A stretch of DNA of 64,000 nucleotides from Escherichia phage JLBYU31, in the sequence record OK272473.1; one strand, written 5' to 3'. The position numbers were made by a program, and so were the translations under genes. Shown one piece after another: positions 4,917-48,039 of the stretch. A model generated the notes under the pieces. The model was not told the origin of the DNA. It searched no databases and saw only the letters and a program-made list of their open reading frames with translations. Positions within the stretch are counted from its first letter, which is position 1. Each line of letters begins with the position of its first letter.

Positions 4917-4930
4917 TCTTTGACGATTTA

Positions 4931-4950
4931 AGGGACCTTCGGGTCCCTTT
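4931..4950 (+). terminator. hairpin AGGGACC-TTCG-GGTCCCT plus T-run after gene 23
   Basis: 7-bp GC stem with UUCG tetraloop 15 nt after the gene 23 stop. Confidence 0.75.
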
Positions 4951-4964
4951 AGTTGTTTTTATGG

Positions 4965-4972
4965 TATAAATA
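4965..4972 (+). promoter_or_regulatory. late promoter TATAAATA for gene 24
   Basis: Exact TATAAATA 28 nt upstream of the gene 24 ATG, SD GGAAAG between. Confidence 0.65.
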
Positions 4973-4999
4973 AATCATATAAACCAAAAGGAAAGCGCA

Positions 5000-6283: not shown

Positions 6284-6286
6284 AAC

Positions 6287-6310
6287 AAAGGGACCGAAAG
6301 GTCCCTTTTT
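6287..6310. terminator. bidirectional hairpin AAAGGGACC-GAAA-GGTCCCTTT between convergent genes 24 and rnlB
   Basis: Perfect 9-bp stem with GNRA loop flanked by A-run/T-run, usable on both strands. Confidence 0.75.
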
Positions 6311-6312
6311 AT

Positions 6313-7320
6313 TTAGCTCACCAACTCAATCCAAGCTGGACGAAGTACATCTTGTACCATTTTAACTAATTCCTTTTTAATCAAAGAAGGATTATCTGCT
6401 TGAGTTAGAGTAATACCTTCACGAGAAGTTTCTTCCAAAATATCTTGAACAGTTAGCCCCATCACCTTTCCAAAATCCTTTGGACCAATTTCGCCAATTT
6501 TAGAAATAACGTTATTTACGCGGTTTAGTGTAACGTAACAAGCTAAAATTCCAACCAATTTGTTATCAGCTTCTGATAGCTCAACTTTAGCTTTAATAGG
6601 CTTATCAGACTTTTTCTTTTCACTAAATTTAGAGTTCTTGCATTTAATCGCTACACGAGCACCGTTTGGCAGCCATTTAGGGAAACAAGGCTTCAGAACA
6701 TAACCTTCTGCAGTATTATCACCAATAACATTAGCATCAAATACACAATTATTTGCTTCGACAAGGTCTTCCGATGCCGTAACGTTATAAGCGGCTAAGA
6801 CGGAATCAAGGTCGTTTGGAATCATGATAAGAGCATCAAATGTTCCACGTCCAAGCATTGGTGCCATTTTAAAACCAAACGTATTACAGAAATCTTGCAT
6901 TTCGTAATCACTCATGTAATAAGTATCACCGCTTTCCGTGTTTATGATGATATCGAATACATAGAAATCTTTTTCACCGTAGTCAACACCTTTCTGAATT
7001 CCACCACCAGCGAATTCACCAAAGACTTGATATGTCACCGGCACTGAAGTTGAAATACTGTCCATGACTTCTTGAACGCCTTTAATAGCTTTATCATACT
7101 TTTTGAGTACTATTTCATAGCCATAAAAATCTTCTGCTGGAAGAATAGGGCCAGTACGTTTAGCGCAAGTTACTTTATCACGCTCAATAATCAATGAGAA
7201 ATTTGTACCATGAATCTTTTCACGAGCTACCCACTCCCCACCAGTCAATCCCAAGCTATAAAGTTTTTCAATAAATTTAGAGTTATAATGATTTTCAAGA
7301 CTGCTATACTTTTTAAACAT
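6313..7320 (-). CDS. rnlB: RNA ligase 2
   Basis: 335-aa ORF; N-terminus [16 protein letters not shown].. and nucleotidyltransferase lysine motif KIHGTN typical of T4 Rnl2. Confidence 0.9.
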
Positions 7321-9038: not shown

Positions 9039-9719
9039 TTATTTTAATGTTACGAAAGAAGAATTACGTGTTTCACGAATTAAAACTGATCCGTCACGAT
9101 TAATGTAGTAAATTAAGCTAAATAAAGTTTGGTGCGCCGACGCGTGTTCAAAACTAGTTGGGTGAGATTTCCAATCCGGAGTTTCAGCAATCCACTGGTA
9201 AATCCACCAAGGAACAGTGCAGAATCCTGGATTTTTTCCAATCAGCTGAAGATTCGGACTAAAGTTTTCCGGAAGAGTAAATACAGACGGCTTTTCAGAT
9301 TCAATAATCTCAGCTACAGCCTGCTCGAATTTTTCTTCAACAAAAGGAGTATCTTCAATCAAAACATCGGTATTTTCAGGAATTTTATCCGTTTCTACTA
9401 CTTCAATTTTAATGTCAGATTTAACCGGAGAATCAATCAGAAGTGCTGCCTCTGGATTGACTTCTTCATCGTCATATTTTAATCCGTCTGCAGCATCAGC
9501 AGCATCAATTAAGTCTTTAATAGATAACCCATCAGTCTCTGGCATAGGTTCACTAGCGAGCTTCTGGAGGGCTTCTTCAATATCAACAACGATATTATCA
9601 AAAGATTTATTCTTTTTGACCTTTATACCAAACTGCTCAGCATATTCAGCTAATTTAGCTTTAGCTTCTTTGTTATCATCAAGAGCCTTCAGCTCTGCAA
9701 TATAATCTTTATCTATCAT
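9039..9719 (-). CDS. inh: Inh, inhibitor of prohead protease
   Basis: 226-aa ORF immediately upstream of hoc on same strand as in T4. Confidence 0.75.
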   Translation of the reverse strand: MIDKDYIAELKALDDNKEAKAKLAEYAEQFGIKVKKNKSFDNIVVDIEEALQKLASEPMPETDGLSIKDLIDAADAADGLKYDDEEVNPEAALLIDSPVKSDIKIEVVETDKIPENTDVLIEDTPFVEEKFEQAVAEIIESEKPSVFTLPENFSPNLQLIGKNPGFCTVPWWIYQWIAETPDWKSHPTSFEHASAHQTLFSLIYYINRDGSVLIRETRNSSFVTLK

Positions 9720-9732
9720 AATATTTCCTCAG

Positions 9733-9740
9733 TATAAATA
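9733..9740 (+). promoter_or_regulatory. late promoter TATAAATA upstream of uvsW
   Basis: Exact TATAAATA 30 nt upstream of the uvsW ATG. Confidence 0.6.
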
Positions 9741-9769
9741 TAGATATATTTATTACATGGTATTTAGAC

Positions 9770-11281
9770 ATGACTGACATTAAAGTACATTTTTATGATT
9801 TTAGTCACGTGAGAATTGATTGTGAAGAAAGTACATTTCATGAACTCCGTGATTTCTTTAGCTTTGAAGCTGATGGGTATCGTTTTAATCCGAAGTACAG
9901 ATATGGCCACTGGGATGGACGAATCCGTCTTTTAGATTATAATCGCCTTCTTCCATTCGGCTTGGTCGGGCAAATTAAAAAGTTCTGTGATAACTTTGGC
10001 TATAAAGCCTGGATTGACCCGCAAATTAACGAAAAAGAAGAATTATCAAGAAAAGATTTTGATGAATGGCTTTCTAAATTAGAAATCTATTCAGGAAATA
10101 AAAGAATTGAACCGCACTGGTATCAAAAAGATGCAGTGTTCGAAGGATTAGTTAATCGTCGTAGAATTCTTAATCTTCCAACATCTGCAGGTAAATCTTT
10201 AATTCAAGCTTTGCTTGCTCGGTATTATTTGGAAAATTATGAAGGTAAAATTCTTATCATTGTTCCAACAACTGCTCTGACAACTCAGATGGCTGATGAC
10301 TTTGTTGACTATCGTTTATTCAGTCATGCAATGATAAAGAAAATCGGCGGTGGAGCATCAAAAGATGATAAATATAAAAATGATGCACCAGTCGTTGTTG
10401 GTACATGGCAAACTGTAGTAAAACAACCGAAAGAATGGTTCTCACAGTTTGGAATGATGATGAATGATGAATGCCATCTTGCTACAGGAAAAAGTATTTC
10501 ATCTATCATATCAGGTTTAAATAACTGCATGTTTAAATTTGGTCTATCAGGTTCATTACGTGACGGCAAAGCCAATATCATGCAGTATGTTGGAATGTTT
10601 GGTGAAATATTTAAGCCAGTAACGACCTCTAAATTAATGGAAGATGGACAAGTAACTGAGTTAAAAATTAATAGTATTTTTCTTCGCTATCCCGATGAGT
10701 TCACTACTAAATTAAAGGGAAAAACTTACCAAGAAGAAATAAAAATTATTACTGGGCTCAGTAAAAGAAATAAATGGATCGCTAAATTAGCTATTAAGCT
10801 TGCACAAAAAGATGAAAACGCTTTTGTCATGTTTAAACACGTATCGCACGGTAAAGCTATTTTCGATTTAATTAAAAATGAATACGATAAAGTTTATTAC
10901 GTATCAGGGGAAGTTGATACCGAAACCCGCAATATAATGAAAACCTTAGCTGAAAATGGTAAAGGAATAATTATAGTAGCGAGTTATGGTGTATTTTCTA
11001 CTGGTATTTCAGTTAAAAATCTGCATCATGTTGTTTTAGCGCACGGCGTTAAATCAAAAATCATTGTATTACAAACAATCGGTCGTGTATTACGTAAGCA
11101 TGGTTCTAAGACAATAGCAACAGTCTGGGACCTCATCGATGATTGTGGTGTTAAGCCAAAATCTGCTAATACGAAAAAGAAATACGTTCATTTGAACTAT
11201 CTTTTAAAACACGGCATTGATCGTATTCAGCGCTACGCAGATGAAAAATTTAATTACGTAATGAAAACAGTTAATTTATAA
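9770..11281 (+). CDS. uvsW: UvsW DNA/RNA helicase
   Basis: 503-aa ORF with Walker A PTSAGKS and DECH box; T4 position. Confidence 0.9.
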   Translation: MTDIKVHFYDFSHVRIDCEESTFHELRDFFSFEADGYRFNPKYRYGHWDGRIRLLDYNRLLPFGLVGQIKKFCDNFGYKAWIDPQINEKEELSRKDFDEWLSKLEIYSGNKRIEPHWYQKDAVFEGLVNRRRILNLPTSAGKSLIQALLARYYLENYEGKILIIVPTTALTTQMADDFVDYRLFSHAMIKKIGGGASKDDKYKNDAPVVVGTWQTVVKQPKEWFSQFGMMMNDECHLATGKSISSIISGLNNCMFKFGLSGSLRDGKANIMQYVGMFGEIFKPVTTSKLMEDGQVTELKINSIFLRYPDEFTTKLKGKTYQEEIKIITGLSKRNKWIAKLAIKLAQKDENAFVMFKHVSHGKAIFDLIKNEYDKVYYVSGEVDTETRNIMKTLAENGKGIIIVASYGVFSTGISVKNLHHVVLAHGVKSKIIVLQTIGRVLRKHGSKTIATVWDLIDDCGVKPKSANTKKKYVHLNYLLKHGIDRIQRYADEKFNYVMKTVNL

Positions 11282-20133: not shown

Positions 20134-20187
20134 TCCTCATGTTATGTCAGTAAGATTACTATAACACAACACGAGGGACTTGTAAAC
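20134..20187. repeat. 54-bp perfect direct repeat, copy 1 (copy 2 at 35952-36005)
   Basis: Identical 54 nt at both loci, checked base by base. Confidence 0.9.
20158..20187 (-). promoter_or_regulatory. early promoter GTTTAC-N18-TATAGT with TGn extended -10 (minus strand)
   Basis: Matches T4 early promoter architecture; located directly after the stop of the upstream Alt paralog. Confidence 0.6.
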
Positions 20188-22244
20188 TACATTTTGAACT
20201 TTTTAGACATTCCGTTGATGTTAACCAAAGAAGCCAAGATTTGAGAAACTTCGTTTTCCTCTTCTTTTGATTCTTCTACAAGGAATTGATTAAATCCAGC
20301 CATTGGACGAACTTCACCAGTTTCCATTAGATGGTCGCCATCATATACCGATTCCTCTAATTGTTCAGAAGGAGGAACGATTGTACCTTCTATTAGATAC
20401 TTGTTATAAGCAGTTTCTTTCATAAAGTACGTGCTCACTTTATTAATCTTCAGTAAAATTCCACGCGGTAGAATAACTTCAGCTTCTGATGGAAATCCTG
20501 ATAAATGACCTGGAACGATAACTTTGATTCGCTCAGCTCCTTTAATTACCATACCCACGCTAGTTTCAGCATCTTCATTAGCATATGTAGAATGACTACC
20601 CATATGCATCAAATCTTCTGCATCAACGGAACCTTCTCCTTCGCCAGAAAATACTGCACCGGAATCATCTAGAGCCATATAGTTTTTACCATGCTCACCG
20701 AAGATATTTGGTTTAAGCGATGTGGATACGAAGTTCTTGAAATAGAACATTTTGTTTTCAATGTTATGACGCAAAGTTTTAAAGGTAACTTCTTGCCCAC
20801 GATAAAGAGTAGTTCCTGGAGGAAGAACTGAACCTTTAGCGAATGCAGAATCCAACGTCTCAATATGTTTAATAGCTCGTTCCATATATTCTTCACGGGT
20901 AGAATCTGGTTTACCCAAGAGGAACGAGTTCATTTCAACATATGAATCTGCACAATAATCTTCAATTACATCAGACTCAGCCTGAGTCAGTCCTTTTGGA
21001 GTTACTTCGGTGCTTGCGTATTCATACGCCTGGGCAGCAGATTCATTAATCAATTTATAAATGCCATTCATGACAAATTGAATAATAGCTGTCTTTTCAT
21101 CTGGCGTAGCTTTAGAACCTTTAACTAAATCATTAATAATTTTCTTAATAACATCAAAGCTATTAGAAATATTAATGTCAGCAAGATCGCTTAAAATTTT
21201 ATCAGTTTTATAATCAAAGAATTCTTTATTCTTTAAATATTCTTGAGAACCTTGATATGTTATATCGCTCTGCAACTTGATGGATGGATCACGTAAACGT
21301 GCATGGGCTAATGCAATATGATTTCGGAAGTTTTCTAGTTCATAATCGCTAGATTTAAAACGAGAAGCGCTCCTCATACCACCGATAGCTCCTTTGTTGA
21401 AGTTTGAACCAATCTGAATAACGCCAGAGTTCATTGGTCCTTCTGCTTTATATACCGGAACTTTAGATTCAAACTCTTGATATTTCTTAGCAGCGAAGCT
21501 ATCACCCTGAAGTGAAGCATCAACAGTAGAATATTGAGCTTGTGCTGCTAATCGACGACTAATTTTAGTTTTCTGAATAACAGCTTGATCCGTGCGCTTA
21601 TCATTTTCTAAGGCAATAGAAGCAGCAACAGCAACAGCTTTAGGAACAGCATTACCTGTTTTAACGTCTACATAAACATCACCAACCTTTGATTCAACTT
21701 TTGTGAATAACTCAGTTGAAATAGGAGGTACACCTGGAATGTCTTCTAAATTGGCATTTTTACGGTAAACCATAATATATGCATATTTCTTATCATAGTC
21801 CCAGATTTCCTTTAAAAGAACATATCGGCCTGCTCCTTTAGTACGTACTAAACGGTCAGCAATAACTTGCATTTGACGAGCTGCGCCATTTGTTTTACTC
21901 TTTAGTACGCGGAATAAGCATGCATCAATTTTATACTGTTTCATTGTTTGAAGAGCAGTATCAAAAACAGCATTAATGACGCCAATTGGATTTCCACCCA
22001 AGTTTTTAAGCTTAACTAATGATAGTTTCTCATTAACACCTATCATTACGATATGCATCATTTTGTCGCCTGGCTTAACGTTTTTATTCGTATCACCGCC
22101 AGAGGTGTATGTACAAAATCTAAATCCAGGAAGCACGCTTTCTTCACCGGCTTGAATAGCAAAAATTTGTGGTATTTTATGCTTAGGATTTAAGTTAACA
22201 ACCGGCGCCGAAGCGCCGTCAAATAATTCTGTAATAAGTTCCAT
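20187..22244 (-). CDS. Alt-family ADP-ribosyltransferase paralog (685 aa)
   Basis: N-terminus MELITELFD shared with the adjacent paralog; C-terminal R-S-E motifs (LYRGQ, FVSTSL, EAEVILPRG). Confidence 0.8.
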   Translation of the reverse strand: MELITELFDGASAPVVNLNPKHKIPQIFAIQAGEESVLPGFRFCTYTSGGDTNKNVKPGDKMMHIVMIGVNEKLSLVKLKNLGGNPIGVINAVFDTALQTMKQYKIDACLFRVLKSKTNGAARQMQVIADRLVRTKGAGRYVLLKEIWDYDKKYAYIMVYRKNANLEDIPGVPPISTELFTKVESKVGDVYVDVKTGNAVPKAVAVAASIALENDKRTDQAVIQKTKISRRLAAQAQYSTVDASLQGDSFAAKKYQEFESKVPVYKAEGPMNSGVIQIGSNFNKGAIGGMRSASRFKSSDYELENFRNHIALAHARLRDPSIKLQSDITYQGSQEYLKNKEFFDYKTDKILSDLADINISNSFDVIKKIINDLVKGSKATPDEKTAIIQFVMNGIYKLINESAAQAYEYASTEVTPKGLTQAESDVIEDYCADSYVEMNSFLLGKPDSTREEYMERAIKHIETLDSAFAKGSVLPPGTTLYRGQEVTFKTLRHNIENKMFYFKNFVSTSLKPNIFGEHGKNYMALDDSGAVFSGEGEGSVDAEDLMHMGSHSTYANEDAETSVGMVIKGAERIKVIVPGHLSGFPSEAEVILPRGILLKINKVSTYFMKETAYNKYLIEGTIVPPSEQLEESVYDGDHLMETGEVRPMAGFNQFLVEESKEEENEVSQILASLVNINGMSKKFKM

Positions 22245-22247
22245 GAT

Positions 22248-24344
22248 TTATCCTTGAACGAACTTGTAAGGCATGTTTGTAATATCTATGCAAGACGCAA
22301 TAATTCCAAGAGATGATTCTACTTTCTGTTTAACGTTTGATGAAACAAATGATGCAAAGTCAACTCTGTCTTCTATTTCAATATCACCTGTCATTGCAAC
22401 CAATTCACCAGTTTCCATTAAATGGTCTCCATCATAGATTACCGATTCGGTGAGCTCTTCCGTAGTCATAACTTCAGCTTGAATGAGTTTTGTATTATTA
22501 GATGTTGTTCCGTCATTATTAGAAGCATCAGTTATTTTATTAACTTTGACCATCAATCCACGCGGTAGAATAACTTCAGCTTCTGTTGCTATTCCGAGAC
22601 TTCCTGGATATACAACATTAACTTTATGAGCTCCATCAATTGCCCATCCTATTTGAACTTTAACGTATTCAGGATTTTCTTTATACGCTCTTATTTCGTT
22701 TGGATTAATAGTTATTCCTTCTTCATTTTTATCAACTGTTAATTCATTGCGAGCTTCTGGTTCTAAAAGACCAATACCAGCATGTGTAATTCCAAAACGT
22801 CCAAAAATGATAGGAGTTAAAGAAGTAGATACAAAATTTCTGAAGTAGAACACTTTATTTTTAACTAACGCTTCATATATAGGAGCAGTCATACTTTGAG
22901 CACGATAAACTGTAATGCCTTCTGGTATACGGTCACCATTTTCAAAAGCTGAATCTAAGTTATTTATAGCAGATTCAATTTCTTTTTCACTCATTACATC
23001 ATATCGTTCTGGATTGTAACGACCTAAAAGAAGATTATTGATGTCAGTATATCCTGAACCGCAATATTCTCTAATGCCATGCTTTTGTGATGGAGTATAT
23101 TTAGAACCATCGCGGGCAATAGTAATATCAATCATTGGACCAGCACCAATTCCAGAAAAACTGTAAATCATTCGTTTGAGGAATTTAGTTTTTGCTGCGT
23201 TCCAGGAATTTTTAGTTATTTCTTCCCAGACTTCATCTGGTTGTCCTTTACGATTTTTATTATGATTAGCAAGCCATTTATCTTTATAATCTTCAAAGAA
23301 TTGATTTATAGCTGCTGCGTATTTCTCTAAACATTTTATTGAAGTAGTTGGTTCATTTTTAATTGCATTAAAAATTACTTCTTTAATTTTTTCTGAAACT
23401 TCACCGACTTGACTCATTGGAAAGAATTTATAATCATAGTGAAGTTCATCTGCCGTTCCTTCAGCAATAATTTTTGCTGCCTTTGTTTTAGAAGCTAATG
23501 AATTAATTCCAATTTTCATTTCTTCTGCTTCGGGAATTAAAGGTGCAGTAGCTGGTTTATTAAAATTAGCTGCTGTAGATTCATACTTCTGGAATAATTC
23601 ACTTTCAAATCTAGAAGATTCCAATGACTGACTTTGTGCAATTGCTCTACGGGAAATTTTAACTTTAACGATTACAGCTTGGTCAGAACGTTTATCGTTT
23701 TCTTGCGCAATAGATGCAGCAATTGCTTCATTTTTGGTTACTTGAGCTCCAGTATCTTTATTAATATAAACATCACCGACCTTCGATTCAACCTTAGTAA
23801 AGAGCTCGGTACTAATTTCCGGAACCCCTGGAATGTCTTCTAGTGATACATTTTTGCGATGTATAAGAATATATGCATACTTTTTATCATAATCCCAGAG
23901 TTCCTTAAGAAGGACGTATCTGCCACCTGAACGACTACGGATAAGTCTATCAGCAATAACTTGAATTTGTCGAGCTTGGCCAGCAGTTTTAGACTTAAGA
24001 ATACGAAGCATACAAGCATCAATTTTATATTGACGCATTGTTTGCATTGCAACAGTAAAAACTGAATTGATATAATTAATTGGGCTTGGACCAAGACCTT
24101 TTAATTTAGCAATTGAACCTTTAGCAGTTAATGTAAAAGGAACAATATGCATCATTTTGTCGCCCATTTTTAAATCACGATTAGTATCACCTCCAGATGT
24201 ATAGGTACATAAACGAAAGCCTGGTTGTTCAATTGCATCATCAACATGAACTGAAAAAATTTGTGGTATTTTCTTCTTTGGATTTAAGTTTGTAATCGGA
24301 AGAGTAGTATCTTCGTCAAATAATTCTGTAATGAGTTCCATCAT
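22248..24344 (-). CDS. alt: Alt ADP-ribosyltransferase (698 aa), head-packaged internal protein
   Basis: N-terminus MELITELFD; R-S-E motifs (VYRAQ, FVSTSL, EAEVILPRG); late promoter immediately upstream; position next to ligase gene. Confidence 0.8.
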   Translation of the reverse strand: MMELITELFDEDTTLPITNLNPKKKIPQIFSVHVDDAIEQPGFRLCTYTSGGDTNRDLKMGDKMMHIVPFTLTAKGSIAKLKGLGPSPINYINSVFTVAMQTMRQYKIDACMLRILKSKTAGQARQIQVIADRLIRSRSGGRYVLLKELWDYDKKYAYILIHRKNVSLEDIPGVPEISTELFTKVESKVGDVYINKDTGAQVTKNEAIAASIAQENDKRSDQAVIVKVKISRRAIAQSQSLESSRFESELFQKYESTAANFNKPATAPLIPEAEEMKIGINSLASKTKAAKIIAEGTADELHYDYKFFPMSQVGEVSEKIKEVIFNAIKNEPTTSIKCLEKYAAAINQFFEDYKDKWLANHNKNRKGQPDEVWEEITKNSWNAAKTKFLKRMIYSFSGIGAGPMIDITIARDGSKYTPSQKHGIREYCGSGYTDINNLLLGRYNPERYDVMSEKEIESAINNLDSAFENGDRIPEGITVYRAQSMTAPIYEALVKNKVFYFRNFVSTSLTPIIFGRFGITHAGIGLLEPEARNELTVDKNEEGITINPNEIRAYKENPEYVKVQIGWAIDGAHKVNVVYPGSLGIATEAEVILPRGLMVKVNKITDASNNDGTTSNNTKLIQAEVMTTEELTESVIYDGDHLMETGELVAMTGDIEIEDRVDFASFVSSNVKQKVESSLGIIASCIDITNMPYKFVQG

Positions 24345-31867: not shown

Positions 31868-32100
31868 AGTACGCCATACACCCTTTGTGCTTCAACTAAT
31901 CCATCAAAATCCAATTTGAGATGTGTTATTTGGTCACCATCACCTGGATTCACAATTACTAATACTGAACGAGGAGTTTCGGTAATAACACGAACCGATG
32001 TTTCTGGAAATCGTTCAGAAACCTTATTTACCAATTCCTGAGCAAATAGTTTAACTTTTTCTTGGAATTCTTTAACAGTAATCGGTTTTTCACTTAGCAT
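31864..32100 (-). CDS. hypothetical protein (78 aa)
   Basis: ORF with ATG. Confidence 0.55.
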   Translation of the reverse strand: MLSEKPITVKEFQEKVKLFAQELVNKVSERFPETSVRVITETPRSVLVIVNPGDGDQITHLKLDFDGLVEAQRVYGVL

Positions 32101-32621
32101 GTTGATCCCAGCTCCTTACTTTCAACGTTTTTAACTAATTTGACAGAAACTAATTCAGCATCTTGAGTAATCATTACCGGGCCTTCTTCATACTCTTCAA
32201 GATATTCTAGAGCTTTCTTTTTAGCTTCTTCCTTCGTATCAGTTTGAGCATAGATATAGAACATACAACCAGTAATACCTACTACTTTCCACTTAATTTC
32301 TTTATCAGTTTTAATTTCAAATTTACTGATAGAGTCATCTTTTTGAACTTCTTCGAAAAAATAATATTCTGACATATAAGTAATTGAAAATAACGGGCTA
32401 TCTTTATAAGATTCGCCCATTACATCAACAGCTTTATACCAGCAGTCATCAATTTCACGTTTAATGCTAATAACATTTTTCGCAGAATCTATTTTTACTT
32501 TAAATGAATTTTCCCCAATAAACTTGGCAATTCGTTTATTAGCCCCGCAAGTTTCATTAAAAATATCTTTATATCCAGCTTTAAAGCGATAAACCTTATC
32601 TTCTTCAAACCATTTGCTCAT
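32094..32621 (-). CDS. hypothetical protein (175 aa)
   Basis: ORF with ATG. Confidence 0.6.
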   Translation of the reverse strand: MSKWFEEDKVYRFKAGYKDIFNETCGANKRIAKFIGENSFKVKIDSAKNVISIKREIDDCWYKAVDVMGESYKDSPLFSITYMSEYYFFEEVQKDDSISKFEIKTDKEIKWKVVGITGCMFYIYAQTDTKEEAKKKALEYLEEYEEGPVMITQDAELVSVKLVKNVESKELGSTC

Positions 32622-33352: not shown

Positions 33353-34573
<1,221 letters not shown>

Positions 34574-34577
<4 letters not shown>

Positions 34578-36008: not shown

Positions 36009-37596
<1,588 letters not shown>

Positions 37597-37604
37597 AATA
37601 AAAT

Positions 37605-37618
37605 GGGCCTTGCGGCCC
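37605..37618 (-). other. hairpin GGGCC-GCAA-GGCCC between nrdB and denA
   Basis: GNRA-loop GC hairpin followed by AUUUUAUU; sits in the false N-terminal extension of the track ORF. Confidence 0.5.
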
Positions 37619-37623
37619 ACTCC

Positions 37624-38802
37624 TTAAAAATATTTTTTAAAACTCATCATAACTTTATCATCAACATCATTATCAATCTGTGCAACAAGGTAAGATGACA
37701 GTTCTACTTCTTGCGGCGCGGATTGAACATTATCAGAATTAAGGTATTCACGAATCCAAGGATATGGATGTTTAACCGGAGCATCGGTAATTGGGCATGG
37801 AAGACCGCACTGTTTCATACGAGATACAGTTAAGTAATCAATAAAGCTCCACATGCTATTTGTATTTAATCCAGGAACATCGCCATCTTTAAATAAATGA
37901 ACTGCCCAATCTTTTTCTTGGCGGTTAACTTCCATGAAAATATCAACTGCTTCTTGTTCACACTCTTTGGCAATTTTAACCCATTCATCACCATCAGTGC
38001 CAAGTTGAAGTTGACGAATAATATATTGAGTGCCTTTAAGGTGAAGCTGCTCATCACGTGCAATGAACTTCATAATCTTGGCATTACCTTCCATGATTTC
38101 CATATTCTTGTGGAAGTTAAAGGTACATGCAAAAGATACATAAAAACGAATAGCTTCCAATGCGTTGATTACGTGCAGGCAGAGGTAAAGAGAGCGCATT
38201 AGTTCACGTTTCCAATACATTTCATGCTCTATGGCATCTTCAATAACGTCTTCGTCTGCATTAATTTCTTTTTGGTATTCGATATCAGCTTTAGCGTTTT
38301 CCCAATAACGAGTTTTAATCAGAACATCATCATAATAACGTCCAATGGATTCAGCTCGTTTCATGATTGCTTCGTCTAATACAATCTCATCAAATACCTT
38401 TGACGGGTCAGTATAAAGATTTCGCATGATATGGGTATATGAACGACTGTGAATAGTTTCACTAAAAGTCCATGTAGCAACCCATGTATCAAGGCTTGGG
38501 TCTGAAATTAATGACATAAGTACAGCAGACGGCGCACGACCCTGAATGCTATCTAGAAGTGATTGATACTTCAGGTTGTTAGTAAAAATATCTTGCTGAT
38601 ATTGAGGAAGCTTGTTAAATTGCGCAGCATCCATCATTAAGTTTACTTCTTCAGGGCGCCAGAAAAATGACAACTGCTTTTCGGTTAAATCTTCAAAAAC
38701 TTTATGACGTTGAATATCATAACGCGCAATACCAAGACCTGAACCAAAAAACATAGGTTCTTTTAAAACATCAACTGGATTTGTATTAAAAACTGTAGAC
38801 AT
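37624..38802 (-). CDS. nrdB: ribonucleotide reductase small subunit NrdB (uninterrupted)
   Basis: 392 aa from ATG 38802 with SD AAAGAGGAAA (track began at TTG 38838); ferritin-like R2 sequence; continuous reading frame. Confidence 0.9.
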   Translation of the reverse strand: MSTVFNTNPVDVLKEPMFFGSGLGIARYDIQRHKVFEDLTEKQLSFFWRPEEVNLMMDAAQFNKLPQYQQDIFTNNLKYQSLLDSIQGRAPSAVLMSLISDPSLDTWVATWTFSETIHSRSYTHIMRNLYTDPSKVFDEIVLDEAIMKRAESIGRYYDDVLIKTRYWENAKADIEYQKEINADEDVIEDAIEHEMYWKRELMRSLYLCLHVINALEAIRFYVSFACTFNFHKNMEIMEGNAKIMKFIARDEQLHLKGTQYIIRQLQLGTDGDEWVKIAKECEQEAVDIFMEVNRQEKDWAVHLFKDGDVPGLNTNSMWSFIDYLTVSRMKQCGLPCPITDAPVKHPYPWIREYLNSDNVQSAPQEVELSSYLVAQIDNDVDDKVMMSFKKYF

Positions 38803-39533
38803 TAATTTTTCCTCTTTAAAATTCTGCCGCGTTTCCAACCTGGCGGTATAATATCATCTTTACCTATAAGCGTGCATTCACTTCCATTATTAATCCATTT
38901 CTTACCGCGGATTCCTTTATAATCTCTTGGTTGTATTTTATCAAACTTTGCATCAAGTTGATATGACCATCTAAATCCATAGGCATATTGAAATTTACCC
39001 TCAGCACAATATTTGATATTTGACCCGTTTCCATTAACTGACCTGGACGCTGCCGCAATAGAGTGAAAGGTTTCTATGAAATCCCCATCTAATGAGAATT
39101 TATGTATTTCGATAGATGGGCATGCATACCTATTCACGTTTGATACATGTTGTTTAGTTTCGTTTTTATGATGCTTGCCTAACATTCCTCTAGGATGAGG
39201 ATTATTTTTCCAATATTTCTTAAAGAAATCAGAATTAGCTTTAGCAAATAATTTTCTGTGCAAGCTATACAATCTGTTATTAATTCTATTACCAGCTTTA
39301 TCTGTTGCCATTAACGTTAACGCAGAGGCAAGCCCAAAATGGCCTTCATTTATCTTACATAGTAATAGATGCGCTATAAAATGTTCTCTAGCTGTTAATT
39401 CAACTAAATTTTCTTTATCATCAGAACCTCCCATGCATTTAGGGACTATATGATGTGTCTCTTTATATTCAGATAAAGGTTCCCGAGCCTGAGCTCGGGA
39501 AATTAGGTCATTATAGATTTTTTGATAATTCAT
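38802..39533 (-). CDS. mobE: free-standing HNH homing-endonuclease-like protein (MobE-like)
   Basis: HNH motif HHIVPKCMGGSDDKENLVELTAREHFIAH; inserted between nrdA and nrdB; start overlaps nrdA stop and stop abuts nrdB start. Confidence 0.75.
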   Translation of the reverse strand: MNYQKIYNDLISRAQAREPLSEYKETHHIVPKCMGGSDDKENLVELTAREHFIAHLLLCKINEGHFGLASALTLMATDKAGNRINNRLYSLHRKLFAKANSDFFKKYWKNNPHPRGMLGKHHKNETKQHVSNVNRYACPSIEIHKFSLDGDFIETFHSIAAASRSVNGNGSNIKYCAEGKFQYAYGFRWSYQLDAKFDKIQPRDYKGIRGKKWINNGSECTLIGKDDIIPPGWKRGRILKRKN

Positions 39534-41797
39534 TACAATTTACACGCTGCACAATCATCGGCTTTAGGAGTTTCTATTTCATAATCATCAGTACCAGAAC
39601 CATCACGGGTATTATGATAATAGAAATTTTTAATGCCATAATACCATCCGTATAGCATGTCATCAATCATTATTGACATTGGAACCTTGCCTTTAGGGAA
39701 GATTTGGGGGTCATAGTATGTATTCGCCGAAGCTGATTGACAAACCCATTTCAGCATAATAGCTACCTGCGTAAGATAAGGTTTATTACCTTTCTTAGCT
39801 AATTTCCATGTATAATCATAGAGGTCTATGTTATGCTCAATATTGGGCACGACTTGATTAAAGGAGCCCTCTTTTGATTCTTTAACAGAGACTGGTCCAC
39901 GTGGAGGCTCGATACCGTTTGTACTGTTAGAAACTTGGGAAGATGACTCACATGGCATAAGTGCTGATAATGTGCTATTACGGATGCCAAAGAGCTTAAG
40001 GTCTTCCCGCAGCGACGACCAGTCACAAACGTATTTTGGAGCTGCGATTTGGTCAATCTTTTTATTGTACCAGTCGATAGGTAATTCGCCTCGAGACCAA
40101 CGAGTGTCTGAATAATATTCGCAAGGTCCTTTTTCTTTGGCGAGCTTAATGGATGCTTTAATGAGTCCATACTGTAATCTCTCAAATAGTTCATGTGTTA
40201 AATCGTTAGCATCTTCATAAGAAGCAAAGTTACTTGCCAGCCAAGCTGCATAGTTAGTAACACCTACACCGAGGTTACGACGCTTTTTAGCTTTTTCTGC
40301 TTCAGGAACTGGATATCCTTGGTAATCCAAAAGATTATCAAGAGCACGAACTTGAACTTCTGCTAATTCATTAATTTTATCTTGGTCTTGCCAATCGAAG
40401 TTATCCAGCACAAATGCAGATAACGTGCACAATCCAATTTCAGCATCAGGACTATTCACATCATTTGTTGGAATAGCAATTTCACAGCACAAGTTACTCT
40501 GACGAATAGGTGCCTTTTCACGAATAAACGGAGTATAGTTATTCGTATTATCAATGAACTGTACATAAATCCTTGCTGTTCCTGAGCGTTCAGTCATGAG
40601 CAATTCAAATAGTTCACGGGCTTTAATACGCTTTTTACGAATATTAGGGTCTTTTTCTGCTGCTTCGTATAATTCACGGAAACGGTCTTGGTCTTTAAAA
40701 TAAGAATAATAAAGCTCGCCACCCATTTCATGCGGACTGAACAAAGTAATGTAATCGTTCTTTCCGAATCGTTCCATCATCAAATCATTCAGCTGAACAC
40801 CATAATCCATATGACGAATGCGGTTTTCTTCTACGCCTTTGTTATTTTTCAAAACGAGAAGATTTTCAACTTCCAAATGCCAAATAGGATAATAAGCAGT
40901 AGCAGCGCCGCCACGAATTCCACCCTGTGAACATGATTTAACTGCAGTCTGAAAATGTTTCCAAAAAGGAATAACACCGGTATGGCGTACTTCACCCATG
41001 CCAATCTTAGAACCTTCGGCACGAATCATACCAACGTTAATACCAATTCCAGCACGTTTGGAGATATATTCAACAATTGAAGCGGAAGCCTTGTTGATAG
41101 ACTTTAATGAATCACCTGCCTCAATAACAACGCATGAACTAAACTGCCGAGTTGGAGTACGGCAACCAGCCATAATAGGAGTTGGCAATGAAATCTGTCG
41201 AGTAGATACTGCTTCATAAAAACGGATAACGTGTTTTAATCTATCAACAGGTTCATCTTGATGCAATGCCATTCCAATAGTCATAAATGCAAACTGTGGA
41301 GTTTCATAAATTTGACCAGTGGTTTTATCTTTAACTAGATATTTTTCTTTTAATTGCATCGCCCCGGAATAAGTAAATTCCATATCCCGCTCGTGCTTAA
41401 TTTTTGATTCTAAAAATGTAATTTCTTCTGCTGAATATTTTGACAATAATTCAGGGTCATATTTACCTGCATTTACACAATAAGAAATATGGTCAATAAA
41501 TGAACGTGGTTCATATTGTCCGTAAACATGCTTACGAAGAGCGAACATTAAACAACGTGCAGCTACATATTGATAATCAGGCTCTTCAACCGAAATAGAA
41601 TTCGCAGCAGCCTTAATGACAATAGTCTGAATATCATCAGTTGTCATTCCATCACGGAGATAAGATTTAATATTTTCATATAATTCATAAGGATCTACTG
41701 ATGTTCCTTCAGCTGCCCAAGATAAAACTTTAATAATTTTTTGTGGGTCAAAGCTCTGAGAAACACCACTACTTTTGATAACATTAATTAATTGCAT
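39533..41797 (-). CDS. nrdA: ribonucleotide reductase large subunit NrdA
   Basis: 754-aa ORF with NxCxE active-site motif (SNLCCEIA) and C-terminal Cys pair CAACKL. Confidence 0.95.
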   Translation of the reverse strand: MQLINVIKSSGVSQSFDPQKIIKVLSWAAEGTSVDPYELYENIKSYLRDGMTTDDIQTIVIKAAANSISVEEPDYQYVAARCLMFALRKHVYGQYEPRSFIDHISYCVNAGKYDPELLSKYSAEEITFLESKIKHERDMEFTYSGAMQLKEKYLVKDKTTGQIYETPQFAFMTIGMALHQDEPVDRLKHVIRFYEAVSTRQISLPTPIMAGCRTPTRQFSSCVVIEAGDSLKSINKASASIVEYISKRAGIGINVGMIRAEGSKIGMGEVRHTGVIPFWKHFQTAVKSCSQGGIRGGAATAYYPIWHLEVENLLVLKNNKGVEENRIRHMDYGVQLNDLMMERFGKNDYITLFSPHEMGGELYYSYFKDQDRFRELYEAAEKDPNIRKKRIKARELFELLMTERSGTARIYVQFIDNTNNYTPFIREKAPIRQSNLCCEIAIPTNDVNSPDAEIGLCTLSAFVLDNFDWQDQDKINELAEVQVRALDNLLDYQGYPVPEAEKAKKRRNLGVGVTNYAAWLASNFASYEDANDLTHELFERLQYGLIKASIKLAKEKGPCEYYSDTRWSRGELPIDWYNKKIDQIAAPKYVCDWSSLREDLKLFGIRNSTLSALMPCESSSQVSNSTNGIEPPRGPVSVKESKEGSFNQVVPNIEHNIDLYDYTWKLAKKGNKPYLTQVAIMLKWVCQSASANTYYDPQIFPKGKVPMSIMIDDMLYGWYYGIKNFYYHNTRDGSGTDDYEIETPKADDCAACKL

Positions 41798-42114
41798 AAG
41801 TCCTCAACTTGAAAATCGTCTTTAAACAATCGGTTAACTATATGAGCTATTATATCACCATGACACGGCTTTGGTTTACATGTGCATCCTAGCCTCATTC
41901 CACGTAAAGGCTCTAAATGTGCTTTAGTTATTTCTCCGGATTTAATTCGACGTATAAAATCTTTTTTGAATAATTCAATGGCAGCCTCCCGGCTGCCAGC
42001 ATCTTTACCGACGTAATTTCCCCAAAATGTACCACGGTGAATATTAACATCAAAGTCGGATTTATATTTATTCACTACCCGGCATAGACGGCCCGCGCTG
42101 GAATAATTCGTCAT
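41788..42114 (-). CDS. hypothetical protein (108 aa), Cys/His-containing
   Basis: ORF with ATG; overlaps nrdA start by 10 nt. Confidence 0.55.
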
Positions 42115-42331
42115 ATTGTTTTTCCGTTAATACAGTAATATCATAGTAACAATCGGAAGAAGTTTTAACTATGGAAATTTTATTATCAAAATACTCACGA
42201 GTCATTTTATGAGTATAGTATTTTTTACCATAAATGGTAATAGGCTGTTCTGGTCCTGGAACTTCTAACTCGCTTGGGTTAGGAAGTGTAAAAAGAACGG
42301 CACCAGAAGTATCTTTAAATCGTAAAATCAT
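42068..42331 (-). CDS. hypothetical protein (87 aa)
   Basis: Track start is TTG 42343; first ATG 42331 with SD GAGGAT. Confidence 0.5.
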
Positions 42332-42351
42332 ATATCCTCGCAATAATAAAA

Positions 42352-43212
42352 TTACACCGCCATCTTTCCTTTAATAGGAGGGTGTGATTCATAGTTGTTA
42401 AGAACAAAATTATGTGGCTTTGCGAATTGACTCAACCAAAATACCTGCGATTCTGTGTCCCATTCATCAAATTCATCTGGAAATTTTAATTGCAATTCGC
42501 ATAAATCCATAGGTTCACGACATAAAATTTCTTTACATTGTTCTACGTGATTCATATAGATATGAGTATTACCACCAGAAAATATCAAATCTCCCGGAAT
42601 AAGATTACACATCTTAGCTACAATATGAACTAACGTAGCATATGATGCAATATTAAATGGAAGACCGAGGAAAACATCTACCGAACGTTGATACCACTGA
42701 AGGTCAAGGTATCCATTACGCACATTAAACTGATAGAACATATGACAAGGCGGTAATGCCATATATTTAAGTTCAGCTGGATTCCACGCAGAAACAATTT
42801 GACGCCTATCATTTGGCAGTTTTTTAATACGATCAATAACTTCTATAATTTGATCTACACCGCCAAAATCACGCCACTGTTTTCCATAAATTGGACCAAG
42901 TTCACCGCTATGGTATCCTAAATCTTTTGCTTGATTTTCGTAATTTTCATCCCAGACTGTTTTGCCTTGAATTAATGAATCATGTTGAATTAATCGCAAA
43001 TCATTGACATTTGTGCTTCCTGATAAAAACCATATTAGCTCAGCAATGCATGCATTCCAGGCGAGCTTTTTAGTTGTTACTGCAGGAAAACCTTTGGTTA
43101 AATCCCAACGCAATTTAGTACCGAACAAAGCAATTGTTCCTGTGCCCGTTCGGTCATCGGTTTCATAGCCATTTTCAAAAATGTCTTTAATTAAATCTTG
43201 GTATTGTTTCAT
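42352..43212 (-). CDS. td: thymidylate synthase (intron-less)
   Basis: 286-aa continuous ORF; active-site PPCH motif; N-terminus [17 protein letters not shown]. Confidence 0.95.
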
Positions 43213-43249
43213 TTAGTACCTTATATAAATTATAATACATTTTATGAAG

Positions 43250-43603
43250 CTAAATAATCAACGGTTTAGCATCAAATTTTCTCTCAATTTCAGGCGTGAA
43301 ATATAATTCTTTACCGCGTTTGGAAAAGCGACCAATAATATGATAATTATTCTCATCAAACGTGATATTACCAATATCCATAGCTTTCAACCAAATATCG
43401 ATATTTCTATCCAGCTTTATGTCAAAATTCCAATACGGAGAACTATTACCGAAAATACTACAAGCGGATTCAGTGAAACAACTGCTATAAATCTTGTCTT
43501 TAGGAACTACTAATTGATAGACACCTTTAATAAACTGAGGACCCTGCCACTTTGGCTGTTTCTCATCTTTTTCTAATAGAATAGGGTAATAATTAAAATT
43601 CAT
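43250..43603 (-). CDS. hypothetical protein (117 aa) between frd and td
   Basis: ORF with ATG, 19 nt after the frd stop. Confidence 0.55.
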   Translation of the reverse strand: MNFNYYPILLEKDEKQPKWQGPQFIKGVYQLVVPKDKIYSSCFTESACSIFGNSSPYWNFDIKLDRNIDIWLKAMDIGNITFDENNYHIIGRFSKRGKELYFTPEIERKFDAKPLII

Positions 43604-43622
43604 ATTTCCGCCGCGCGTTATT

Positions 43623-44542
<920 letters not shown>

Positions 44543-44634
44543 TATATTTTCCTCAAATTCATTTAAATCAAGACTATGCAATTTTTAAAGCATTGCATAA
44601 TAGAATTCATCATTCATAAACTCAAATACAAAAA

Positions 44635-44994
44635 TTATATTATCTCCCATCGAAAAGGGTCAGGAGCATATCCGATAGAGTTAATCATTTTAACTAAAGT
44701 TACCATTCCTTTGTTAACTGCTTGTGCGATTTCATCAAAAACTTCATCGCTATCATCATAAAGGTCATTAAAAAGTTCTAACACGTTCTTCTGAACTTTT
44801 AATTTATGACCAACAATCTCTCCTACAGTAAATTCGTTTCCGCCGATTCCAGTGTAAAACGTAATTACACCAGTTAACAGACTTTCGCGAGAATCTAGGT
44901 CATGTGATAAATTAATATAAGCCATCCCGGGTGCAGTTTTAAGTTGGCAACGAATTCTTACTTGGGTAATTCCGGTTACATGAATGTCGGACAT
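44635..44994 (-). CDS. hypothetical protein (119 aa)
   Basis: ORF with ATG. Confidence 0.6.
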   Translation of the reverse strand: MSDIHVTGITQVRIRCQLKTAPGMAYINLSHDLDSRESLLTGVITFYTGIGGNEFTVGEIVGHKLKVQKNVLELFNDLYDDSDEVFDEIAQAVNKGMVTLVKMINSIGYAPDPFRWEII

Positions 44995-46377: not shown

Positions 46378-47286
46378 TTAAAGGTCATTCAAAAGGTCAT
46401 CCAGGTCCGTGTCATCAGCACTAGATGAACTACCAGAGCTTGAGCTCATAAAATCATCTTCAGTTTTTGTATTGAAGTCATCAACATTGAATGCATCCAA
46501 ATCATCAGCAACTTTATCAGCTTTCTTAGCAGCAGTTGCAGCGGCACCGCCCATCACAGCAGTTCCCATGACTTGACCGAATTTAGTGCTCAGTTCTTCA
46601 AACGATTTGAATTTATCTTTAGAAGTCATTTCAGAAAGGTCAACCATTTGTTCGAACAGTTCTTTCTGGAAAGATTCATCGTCAATGTTTGGAATCGCAG
46701 ATTGATTCAGGAATTTAGATTCGTCGTAGTTACTAAATCCAGAAACCTGCTTAACTTTCAGTACAAAGTTAGCACCTTCCCACGGACAAGTTACATCAAC
46801 CGGAGTTTCACCCATTTCAACATCAACCGCAATCATCGCGTTGATTTTATCCCAGATTTTCTTACCGAAACGATATTTAAATACTTTACCTTCATTTTCT
46901 GGAGCAGCTGGGTCTTTTACAACAAGAATATTAGCCCAGTAAGAAGTTTTACGTTTAACAAGACTGTACTCTTTATTGTCAGTGTTGTACAAATCATTTT
47001 TACTGATGTATTGACATACTGGGCAAGAATCGTAATCACCGTGGGTAGATGAACAGTTTTCAATATACCATTTACCATTTTTCTTGAAACCGTGATTTAC
47101 AAGAATTGCGAATGGTGCTTGTTCATCATTTTTAGACGGAAGAAAACGAATTACTGCTTGACCGTTACCCGCATTATCGAGTTTCAGTTTCCACTCGCCT
47201 TTATCTTCAGAAGAAAAACCACCTTTATTTCCAGCCAATTTAGCCATTTGTGCAGCGAGTTCAGCAGTAGATTTACGTTTAAACAT
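46378..47286 (-). CDS. 32: single-stranded DNA-binding protein gp32
   Basis: 302-aa ORF, N-terminus [17 protein letters not shown], Zn motif [15 protein letters not shown], acidic S/D-rich C-terminus. Confidence 0.97.
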
Positions 47287-47360
47287 TTTTATTTCCTTTT
47301 TAATTTAATTAACAGTTGGTGCTATGACGATGTATGACCTCATAGCTGGTCAGTGAGATA
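47287..47360 (-). promoter_or_regulatory. gene 32 mRNA leader: translational operator with 5' pseudoknot (47321-47352) and A/U-rich unstructured region
   Basis: Leader contains UGACCAGCUAUGAGGUCAUACAUCGUCAUAGC (interleaved stems UGACC/GGUCA and GCUAUGA/UCAUAGC) as in the T4 gene 32 autoregulatory site. Confidence 0.7.
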
Positions 47361-47369
47361 ATTATAATT

Positions 47370-47377
47370 TATTTATA
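47370..47377 (-). promoter_or_regulatory. late promoter TATAAATA (minus) for gene 32
   Basis: Plus TATTTATA between gene 59 stop and the gene 32 leader. Confidence 0.55.
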
Positions 47378-47385
47378 ATAAGCAA

Positions 47386-48039
47386 TTAATACTTGCAAGA
47401 TTTCACAGTTTCAATAAAAACATTTTTAGCTTTCTGTGAATCAATATTTAAAATTTTTCTATAAGCCTTTAACTTTATAGAATAATTATTCCAGACTAAA
47501 TTATCAGTCTGTTCATCATGTTTATCAATTATATTTAAAAATGAATCAAGCAAGATAAACGTCTCAAACGAAATTATGTTCGATTGCAGAAGTTTAAAAA
47601 TATAACTTGACTGAACCTTTGGATTATATTCAAAGATTTCTTTAAAAGCAGAAACTTCAACTTTTTTACTAAAATAATAAATGTTGCGAATATCTTCTTC
47701 AAACTTAAATTTAATTTGCTTTAAGCGTCCGATATATTCACGATAAAACACAAGTGCATCAGCGTCAGAGATGTCACCAATCCAAGCATCTTGGTTAGCA
47801 ACCAAATTACTTATAAAGATTAAAGCAAGTTCCTTTAATTTATATTTTTCTGATAACTTCTGGAAAAAATACTTATCCCTTCGCTTTTGATAAGCGGCAT
47901 CAGACACCCGCATGCACCAATTATACTTAATTACATCATACTTTCCATTCATATGTTGTTTTATCATTAAGTATAATTTATAAACTGATTTACCATCAAT
48001 GTATCTTTCACCACCAGCAGGCATGCGGAGTTTAATCAT
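47386..48039 (-). CDS. 59: helicase loader gp59
   Basis: 217-aa ORF, N-terminus MIKLRMPAGGERYIDGKSVYKLYLMIKQHMNGKYD. Confidence 0.92.
   Translation of the reverse strand: MIKLRMPAGGERYIDGKSVYKLYLMIKQHMNGKYDVIKYNWCMRVSDAAYQKRRDKYFFQKLSEKYKLKELALIFISNLVANQDAWIGDISDADALVFYREYIGRLKQIKFKFEEDIRNIYYFSKKVEVSAFKEIFEYNPKVQSSYIFKLLQSNIISFETFILLDSFLNIIDKHDEQTDNLVWNNYSIKLKAYRKILNIDSQKAKNVFIETVKSCKY

Follow-up and report, generated by a model that had tools for sequence, protein, structure and literature searches.

Genes of the nrdA–td region

The window, i.e., the whole stretch of 64,000 nucleotides of Escherichia phage JLBYU31 (OK272473.1) that was analysed, is a Tequatrovirus (T4-like) segment colinear with T4 from 101.6 to 165.2 kb. 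The nrdA–td region of the window contained the following features:

37624..38802, minus strand: nrdB, uninterrupted, a continuous ORF of 392 aa with a full Ribonuc_red_sm match
38677..38681, minus strand: nrdB nt 122–126, the position of the T4 MobE nicks mapped in T2 nrdB (PMC2790892); codon 42 is AAG
38802..39533, minus strand: mobE, RB3-type allele, 243 aa, with an HNH head (HHIVPKCMGG...N...H) and a NUMOD1 tail
39480..39501, minus strand: hairpin in the 5′ end of mobE, with a 9-bp stem, a 4-nt loop and a short T tract, identical in sequence to T4 and slur04
39533..41797, minus strand: nrdA, ORF of 754 aa
42352..43212, minus strand: td (thymidylate synthase), a continuous ORF of 286 aa that matches the Thymidylat_synt profile over its full length (1–266/266)
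42643..42690, minus strand: unoccupied I-TevI homing site, with the insertion point at 42664/42663 and the CAACG cleavage motif at 42686–42690

Over the colinear range, T4 carries six homing-endonuclease genes, whereas the window carried one. The only large T4-specific blocks missing from the window were segD, segE, the nrdB intron, the td intron and segG. When the window was searched by tblastn with T4 SegD, SegE, SegG, I-TevI, I-TevIII, MobE and nrdB.1, mobE was the sole match, and neither I-TevI nor I-TevIII gave a match in the window. GIY-YIG and HNH regular expressions applied to all six frames of the window recovered mobE only, with no GIY-YIG domain. The T4-absent ORFs at 32094–32621, 34257–34577, 43250–43603, 44201–44581 and 44635–44994 were considered as novel endonucleases and rejected, as Pfam and PHROGs placed them in DUF or unknown families only.

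Intronless nrdB and td

Alignment of td and nrdB with the T4 alleles showed that both intron insertion sites are unoccupied. The 598-nt nrdB intron and the 1017-nt td intron of T4 were cleanly absent, leaving empty junctions at 38127/38126 and 42664/42663, respectively. In the 80 bp around the nrdB intron insertion site, 2 positions differed from T2. No match to Intron_gpI (RF00028) was found at E ≤ 1 in an Rfam scan of positions 37000–44000 run in E-value mode, and the same mode recovered both T4 introns as the positive control, at 40.3 and 35.7 bits. An Rfam scan at the gathering threshold was also empty and was discarded as evidence, because the genuine T4 introns were missed at that setting too.

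The sequence-only reading, made earlier on this DNA, had described nrdB and td as continuous ORFs, in which T4 carries group I introns with I-TevIII and I-TevI, respectively, and had held that a group I intron core within either gene would speak against it. The coordinates, the full-length Pfam matches and the alignment to T4 all agreed on the continuous ORFs, the T4 introns and their endonucleases are as given in the T4 annotation and in PMC2988022, and no group I core was detected under conditions in which the T4 control was positive. The region of td at 42600–42680, which had been read as an unoccupied homing site, was likewise found to be empty at the intron insertion point.

The I-TevI homing site and the empty seg junctions

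The I-TevI site of the window was identical to the spliced T4 site at 41 of 48 bases, and all 7 substitutions were synonymous. Compared with T2, 4 differences were found, all of them in the upstream half of the site, and the downstream half was identical. The CAACG motif, which is required for cleavage by I-TevI (PMC5009752), was intact and lay at the correct distance, 23–27 nt upstream of the insertion point. Judging from the motif and its spacing, cleavage of this td site by I-TevI would be likely, though the 7 substitutions relative to T4 and the 4 relative to T2 make it less than certain.

Three intergenic junctions at which T4 carries seg genes were also empty in the window:

4917..4999: gap between genes 23 and 24 (last base of gene 23 at 4916, first base of gene 24 at 5000), 83 bp, empty; T4 has segD; 83/83 bases identical to T2
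9039–9719, minus strand: inh
9720..9769: gap between inh and uvsW, 50 bp, empty; T4 has segE; 50/50 bases identical to T2
9770–11281, plus strand: uvsW
46378–47286, minus strand: gene 32
47287..47385: gap between genes 32 and 59, 99 bp, empty; T4 has segG; 98/99 bases identical to T2
47386–48039, minus strand: gene 59

No GIY-YIG ORF was present in the 23/24, inh/uvsW or 32/59 gaps, and scars were absent from the empty junctions. The 50-bp inh/uvsW gap and the 99-bp 59/32 gap had been reported before as lacking an ORF where T4 carries seg-type genes. Both gap coordinates were confirmed, and the T4 annotation places segE at inh/uvsW and segG at 32/59. The absence of segD at the 23/24 junction had been overlooked.

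These sites may be empty because they are refractory, with synonymous changes shielding td from I-TevI and comparable ones within uvsW and gene 32 shielding the seg targets. The number of substitutions in the 48-bp site is in keeping with this explanation, as is the fact that the 4 in the upstream half are not found in the recipient T2 either. Identity to T4 also falls to 90–93% around the td insertion site, against 98–100% farther away. However, the cleavage motif is preserved at its correct distance, I-TevI is tolerant of sequence changes (PMC5009752; Bryk 1993, cited in PMC2988022), the td site does not differ from T2 in its downstream half, and the three seg junctions match T2 almost base for base. 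We consider refractory sites an improbable explanation. Sensitivity to SegD, SegE and SegG would be expected only on the ground that uvsW and gene 32 are 96.6–97.7% identical to their T2 counterparts.

An RB3-type mobE between nrdA and nrdB

The ORF between nrdA and nrdB has the same orientation as both neighbours and overlaps each of them by 1 nt. The sequence TAATG was found at both joins, i.e., at the nrdA stop and mobE start and at the mobE stop and nrdB start, and the mobE ATG overlaps the nrdA stop codon (TAATGA). The earlier description of an HNH ORF with 1-nt overlaps at this place thus holds. That reading had also presented the gene as a difference from T4. This did not stand for its position, since T4 has mobE there too, and it did stand for the allele, which is of the RB3 type with an unrelated C-terminal half.

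In T4 (Wilson and Edgell 2009, PMC2790892), mobE has the same locus, orientation and overlap of the nrdA stop with the ATG (UAAUGA). The hairpin in the window matches a weak intrinsic terminator that has been reported from the 5′ coding region of T4 mobE (PMC2790892). The first ~55 aa of T4 MobE are nearly identical to those of the window, and the N-terminal HNH domains are homologous, with 64% identity over ~105 aa (tblastn, E 3e-38). In the Pfam HNH profile, MobE of the window scored 19.3 bits, just below the gathering cut-off of 21.4, and T4 MobE scored 21.5. In contrast, the C-terminal domain, presumed to bind DNA, is not homologous to that of T4 MobE: no tblastn alignment extended past aa ~105, and DNA identity to T4 was 35–62% across 38800–39400. 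The RB3-type tail consists of NUMOD1 and a Seg/I-TevI-like C-terminus, whereas the T4/slur04-type tail is NUMOD3. In T4, the annotation divides the gene between mobE (141 aa) and nrdB.1 (83 aa); slur04 has a single ORF of 213 aa, and the window has one ORF of 243 aa. Searching PDB sequences with MobE was uninformative, since the one similarity obtained, to the HNH part of a group II intron maturase, was marginal.

RB3 MobE (AY262130.2; KM606994, RB3_226) was 100% identical to that of the window at both the amino acid (243 aa) and the nucleotide (732 nt) level, and lies at the same nrdA/nrdB position with the same 1-nt overlaps. RB3, however, has an nrdB intron with full-length I-TevIII and a td intron with I-TevI, and the window has neither. 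In T2 (MH751506), which is poor in endonucleases, td (861 nt) and nrdB (1179 nt) are intronless as in the window, but the nrdA/nrdB spacer is 51 bp long and lacks the mobE found in the window. Both T2 and the window also contain an additional td/frd ORF and two alt paralogues of full length. The comparison with T2 and RB genomes, which had been proposed with the earlier reading, thus linked the empty junctions to T2 and mobE to RB3. Taken together, the endonuclease content of the 64-kb range is very probably a T2-like empty state plus the RB3 allele of mobE, an ordinary selfish-element polymorphism among T-even phages.

As an alternative, the HNH ORF might no longer be a mobile endonuclease but an inactive passenger, retained only for nrdB expression signals (translational coupling and a promoter). 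T4 MobE activity was not demonstrable in vitro, and the nrdB promoter embedded in mobE has been argued to select against mobE deletion (PMC2790892). The nrdB target region is moreover unprotected in the window, which would be harmless with a dead enzyme. On the other hand, the ORF is full-length with an intact HNH motif, MobE differed by only 0–8 aa across phages whose flanks are 93–97% identical, and 54 records carried it at ≥95% aa identity. The 3′ end of mobE contained no consensus match to a MotA-type middle promoter for nrdB, and a weak CGCTTAT...TATTAT candidate noticed there on visual inspection was set aside. An inactive passenger is for these reasons unlikely.

The nrdB target region in carriers of the two mobE alleles

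Only T4 mobE has been shown to nick nrdB of a mobE-less phage in a strand-specific manner and to bring about gene conversion that depends on it (PMC2790892). In the window, nrdB nt 7–146 were identical to T2, including the mapped T4-MobE nick site. Carriers of T4-type mobE have a dense block of substitutions at nrdB nt 39–141, around this site, and the window lacks the block. In the RB3-type carriers compared (the window, JLBYU24, PYps55T and Sf23), nrdB nt 39–141 were identical or nearly identical to sensitive T2. The last 123 nt of nrdA showed 10 differences from T2 that were common to all mobE carriers compared.

The nick-site data obtained with T4 may not transfer to the MobE of the window, because the two proteins have unrelated C-terminal halves. 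Moreover, as RB3-type carriers are T2-like at nrdB nt 39–141, the published self-immunity via target polymorphism may not apply to the RB3-type allele. It is possible, if still somewhat doubtful, that the name mobE covers two functionally different endonucleases that share one HNH head and carry RB3-type or T4/slur04-type tails. If so, RB3-type MobE might target another site, e.g., the nrdA/nrdB spacer of 51 bp, whose place mobE itself has taken; alternatively, it might nick its own genome or be inactive. A genome like that of the window would then also be open to invasion by the T4-type allele, leading to allele replacement at one locus. The lead arising from this comparison is whether RB3-type and T4 MobE share a target, given that the former differs in its DNA-binding tail and is carried next to a T2-like nrdB that lacks protection.

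Distribution among phage genomes

A total of 50,697 phage records were scanned, among which ~480–515 were close relatives (≥90% identity). The td intron, the nrdB intron, segE, segG and segD were found in 260, 127, 159, 142 and 55 records, respectively; these counts, like those that follow, are rough, since duplicate GenBank/RefSeq entries and laboratory T4 variants are included. RB3-type mobE together with nrdB was found in 57 records, and among the matches listed at least 42 were intronless like the window and 11 had the intron. For the cross-tabulation of alleles, GenBank loci were used, and NrdB loci from IMG/VR were set aside as mostly distant (74–93% aa identity). All of these endonuclease and intron states are common in GenBank phages, and the arrangement of the window is present in dozens of deposited genomes. 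Phage JLBYU24 (OK272476) has the same arrangement of intronless nrdB, RB3-type mobE, nrdA and intronless td, with 97.7% identity over 7 kb, and at least 40 further GenBank Tequatrovirus records showed no difference in kind. The best-matching deposited records were 96–98% identical to the window.

A history of loss can also be weighed, in which introns or seg genes were once present and disappeared through exact deletion or through recombination with alleles lacking them, mobE being the remnant of an RB3-like, endonuclease-rich ancestor. The complete DNA identity of mobE to that of RB3, which has both introns, fits such a history, as do the extra td/frd ORF common to RB3 and the window and the mobE+ I-TevIII− progeny obtained in published crosses (PMC2790892). 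However, the td exon flanks resemble T2 and not RB3 or T4, as does nrdB in its 5′ part, the empty junctions bear no scars, and the mobE+ intronless arrangement recurs in at least 42 records. Loss by recombination with an empty allele and a lineage that was never invaded would look the same by sequence alone. Overall, loss from an RB3-like ancestor appears rather unlikely, though less so than refractory sites or an inactive mobE.

Proposed behaviour in mixed infections

The mechanism and the T4 gene positions used here are those of PMC2790892 and PMC2988022, in which T2 was the experimental recipient for T4 endonuclease genes in T4 × T2 crosses. By analogy with the published T4 mobE work, mobE of the window would be co-transcribed and translationally coupled with nrdA, and its expression would be dampened by the internal weak terminator. 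MobE is then predicted to nick the mobE-less nrdA–nrdB region of a co-infecting phage, and recombinational repair would copy mobE and its flanks into the nicked phage. If a T4-like donor infected the same cell, the unoccupied td, nrdB, 23/24, inh/uvsW and 32/59 sites would be expected to be cut and converted, as in T2.

It is reasonable to regard the genome of the window as a probable recipient for homing, as had been proposed from its open sites, and this view gains strength from the agreement of the empty junctions with those of T2 (83/83, 50/50 and 98/99 bases), the experimental recipient. Carrying mobE, the genome could act as a donor too, and not just as a recipient. It is already established that T-even phages vary in their content of introns and free-standing endonucleases, that empty sites of the T2 kind are targets of homing, and that mobE occurs at the nrdA/nrdB junction, also in genomes that are mobE+ I-TevIII−. 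For annotation, the name mobE (RB3 type) should be given to the 243-aa ORF, and both td and nrdB consist of a single exon in this phage.

Uninterrupted nrdB and td genes

As shown by local blastn against NC_000866, T4 101.6–165.2 kb was colinear with the window on the same strand. In this shared range, T4 carries six homing-endonuclease genes (segD, segE, I-TevIII, mobE, I-TevI and segG) and the window carries one. No further HNH or GIY-YIG genes were found in the window by tblastn with T4 proteins and six-frame motif scans. Three features were identified around the ribonucleotide reductase and thymidylate synthase genes:

37624–38802, minus strand: nrdB, continuous, 392 aa from the ATG chosen in the sequence-only reading; full Ribonuc_red_sm match
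38802–39533: mobE, the HNH ORF, 243 aa, overlapping the stop of nrdA and the start of nrdB by 1 base each
42352–43212, minus strand: td, continuous, 286 aa; Thymidylat_synt profile 1–266 of 266

The nrdB and td genes had been described as uninterrupted, and the continuous ORFs, the full Pfam matches and the T4 alignment all agreed. The 598-nt nrdB intron was cleanly missing (T4 138457 to 139058 at window 38126/38129), as was the 1017-nt td intron (T4 143546 to 144564 at window 42663/42664); direct reading placed the insertion points at 38127|38126 and 42664|42663, respectively. At the gathering threshold, Rfam reported nothing in the whole window but also nothing in the T4 locus with both introns, so this negative was worthless. 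In E-value mode, Intron_gpI matched both introns of T4, the positive control, with scores of 40.3 bits for td and 35.7 bits for nrdB, and had no match at E ≤ 1 in window 37000–44000. Because the ORFs are continuous and no Intron_gpI match was obtained, the absence of the introns is settled. The T4 introns (4509–4749 for nrdB and 9596–9826 for td in the T4 locus sequence) score under the Intron_gpI gathering threshold of 50 bits, so that ORF-containing group I introns of phages will go undetected in Rfam scans with default settings.

The CAACG cleavage motif of I-TevI, in which C1 and G5 are critical (PMC5009752), was present at 42686–42690, 23–27 nt upstream of the td insertion point. The td site differed from the T4 exon junction at 7 of 48 positions, all synonymous; compared with T2, the downstream half was identical and the upstream half had four differences. 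Since I-TevI has documented tolerance, it would likely cleave the td site of the window.

The mobE allele

The HNH ORF lay between nrdA and nrdB with TAATG at both ends, as the coordinates and 1-nt overlaps proposed from sequence alone required. It had been presented as a difference from T4. The position is not one, because T4 has mobE there; the difference is in the allele, which is of the RB3 type. The encoded protein was 100% identical to RB3 MobE (AY262130.2), and the DNA was 100% identical to RB3 across 38800–39500. The Mob-type HNH motif was present; its Pfam HNH score of 19.3 bits fell slightly short of the 21.4 cut-off (T4 MobE scored 21.5). A NUMOD1 domain was found at aa 147–177 (25.9 bits, cut-off 22.8), whereas the T4-type allele combines HNH with NUMOD3. 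Similarity to T4 MobE (64%) was confined to the initial ~105 aa, of which the first ~55 were almost identical, with no match beyond. The MobE tail showed weak similarity to SegE and to the C-terminal region of TIGR01453, a model of group-I-intron endonucleases: aa 97–191 weakly matched the DNA-binding half of this GIY-YIG model, and the last ~32 aa (window 38811–38906) were 50% identical to T4 SegE aa 165–196. The tail thus looks like a shuffled DNA-binding module fused to an HNH head.

The nrdA-stop/ATG overlap and a 5' hairpin are common to the window and T4 mobE. The hairpin of the window (39501–39480, ~30 nt into mobE) has a 9-bp stem and a 4-nt loop; that of T4 mobE acts as a weak terminator (Wilson and Edgell, PMC2790892). 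The T4-type allele is one 213-aa ORF in slur04 (1476–2117 of its locus), whereas the T4 reference (T4 139716–140416; 5717–6417 of the locus sequence) divides it into two annotated genes, mobE (141 aa) and nrdB.1 (83 aa), with two frame changes mid-gene relative to slur04. This split reflects either a decayed, frameshifted gene or errors in the old reference sequence.

Nicks dependent on T4 MobE were mapped to nt 122–126 of T2 nrdB, and polymorphisms at nrdB nt 114–131 were proposed to protect mobE-carrying genomes from their own enzyme (Wilson and Edgell, PMC2790892). In the window, nrdB nt 7–146 were identical to T2, and codon 42 was AAG in both. Nucleotides 100–150 were compared in a small sample of eight further genomes with RB3-type mobE: PYps55T and Sf23 equalled T2, JLBYU24 equalled the window, four had one to five silent changes, and Aplg8 had a slur04-type haplotype alongside its RB3-type mobE. 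In the Aplg8 locus (201–2109 of the sequence compared), mobE has an altered 3' end, encodes 248 aa and overlaps nrdB by 17 nt; Aplg8 is a natural recombinant between two mobE-linked haplotypes. T4 and slur04, carriers of the T4-type allele, showed a dense cluster of nrdB differences at nt 39–141. Over its final 123 nt, nrdA had the same ten differences from T2 in all mobE carriers compared, which covered both alleles (window, JLBYU24, RB3 and T4). The mostly T2-like nrdB nt 98–126 (window 38677–38705) of RB3-type carriers would presumably be sensitive to T4 MobE. This T2-like nick region, together with the unrelated C-terminal domain, suggests the hypothesis that RB3-type MobE has another target, does not depend on such self-protection or is inactive.

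Empty seg junctions and likeness to T2

In T4, segE lies at inh/uvsW, segG at 32/59, I-TevIII and I-TevI in introns and mobE at nrdA/nrdB (PMC2988022), and the annotation of NC_000866 shows these genes at the same positions. The placement of T4 seg-type genes at two of these junctions in the sequence-only reading was therefore correct, and the reported lack of an ORF in either gap held: inh (9039–9719) and uvsW (9770–11281) are 50 bp apart, and gene 32 (46378–47286) and gene 59 (47386–48039) are 99 bp apart. Also absent was segD, as T4 106521–107311 had no counterpart and 83 bp (4917–4999) separate genes 23 and 24. In T4, segD lies antisense between these genes; its absence was not listed in the sequence-only reading.

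T2 (MH751506) likewise has gaps of 83, 50 and 99 bp, matched by the window at 83/83, 50/50 and 98/99 positions, and its td (861 nt) and nrdB (1179 nt) each consist of a single exon, as in the window. T2 was the experimental recipient for T4 mobE (PMC2790892) and a recipient in seg-mediated marker exclusion (PMC2988022). This likeness is what most strongly favours the window as a homing recipient, a status that we infer. The original interpretation is supported, with this qualification and the corrections on mobE and segD.

Distribution among relatives

Window 37000–44000 matched 979 phage records by megablast, nearly all T4-like. The top match was JLBYU24 (97.7% across the full 7 kb), and the best long matches among deposited genomes were 96–98%.

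Matching records among 50,697 phage records, with ~480–515 close relatives at ≥90% identity; counts are rough, as duplicates and laboratory strains are included
T4 td intron: 260
nrdB intron: 127
segE: 159
segG: 142
segD: 55
RB3-type mobE with nrdB: 57 (≥80% of query)

For each T4 endonuclease, carriers made up a minority of the relatives or up to about half of them. Among the listed full-coverage records of RB3-type mobE with nrdB, 42 had an uninterrupted nrdB and 11 had the intron, including RB3, RB5–RB10, pSe_SNUABM_01, vb_GEC_SH_GT and G2540-3. Crosses also yielded mobE+ I-TevIII− progeny (Wilson and Edgell, PMC2790892). The observation is confirmed as real; the arrangement, repeatedly deposited, is ordinary and already known.

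Other differences from T4

Five ORFs absent from T4 were considered as endonucleases and rejected, all belonging to families of unknown function:

32094–32621: 175 aa, phrog_3710
34257–34577: 106 aa, phrog_2364
43250–43603: 117 aa, phrog_1928
44201–44581: 126 aa, phrog_8592
44635–44994: 119 aa, DUF7247

The ORF at 43250–43603 sits between td and frd, which overlap directly in T4; it also occurs in T2 (RB32ORF229c homologue), in RB3 and in JLBYU24, where the annotation wrongly calls it dihydrofolate reductase. The other stretches not aligning to T4 were the alt paralogues and the end of gene 37. Tandem full-length alt-like ORFs (20187–22244 and 22248–24344; 685 and 698 aa) were present, as in T2; in T4, only the short remnants alt.-1 and alt.-2 represent the second copy. 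Like its T2 counterpart, which is followed by a separate uvsW.1, the uvsW gene encodes 503 aa; T4 RefSeq annotates 587 aa, and the record mentions sequence discrepancies. Short patches in td (~42390–42520) and nrdB (~38200–38290) had ~50% nucleotide identity and indels relative to T4 and RB3, and were 97–98% identical to JLBYU24. These patches (thymidylate synthase aa ~231–275 and NrdB aa ~170–200) appear to be allelic surface-loop variants.
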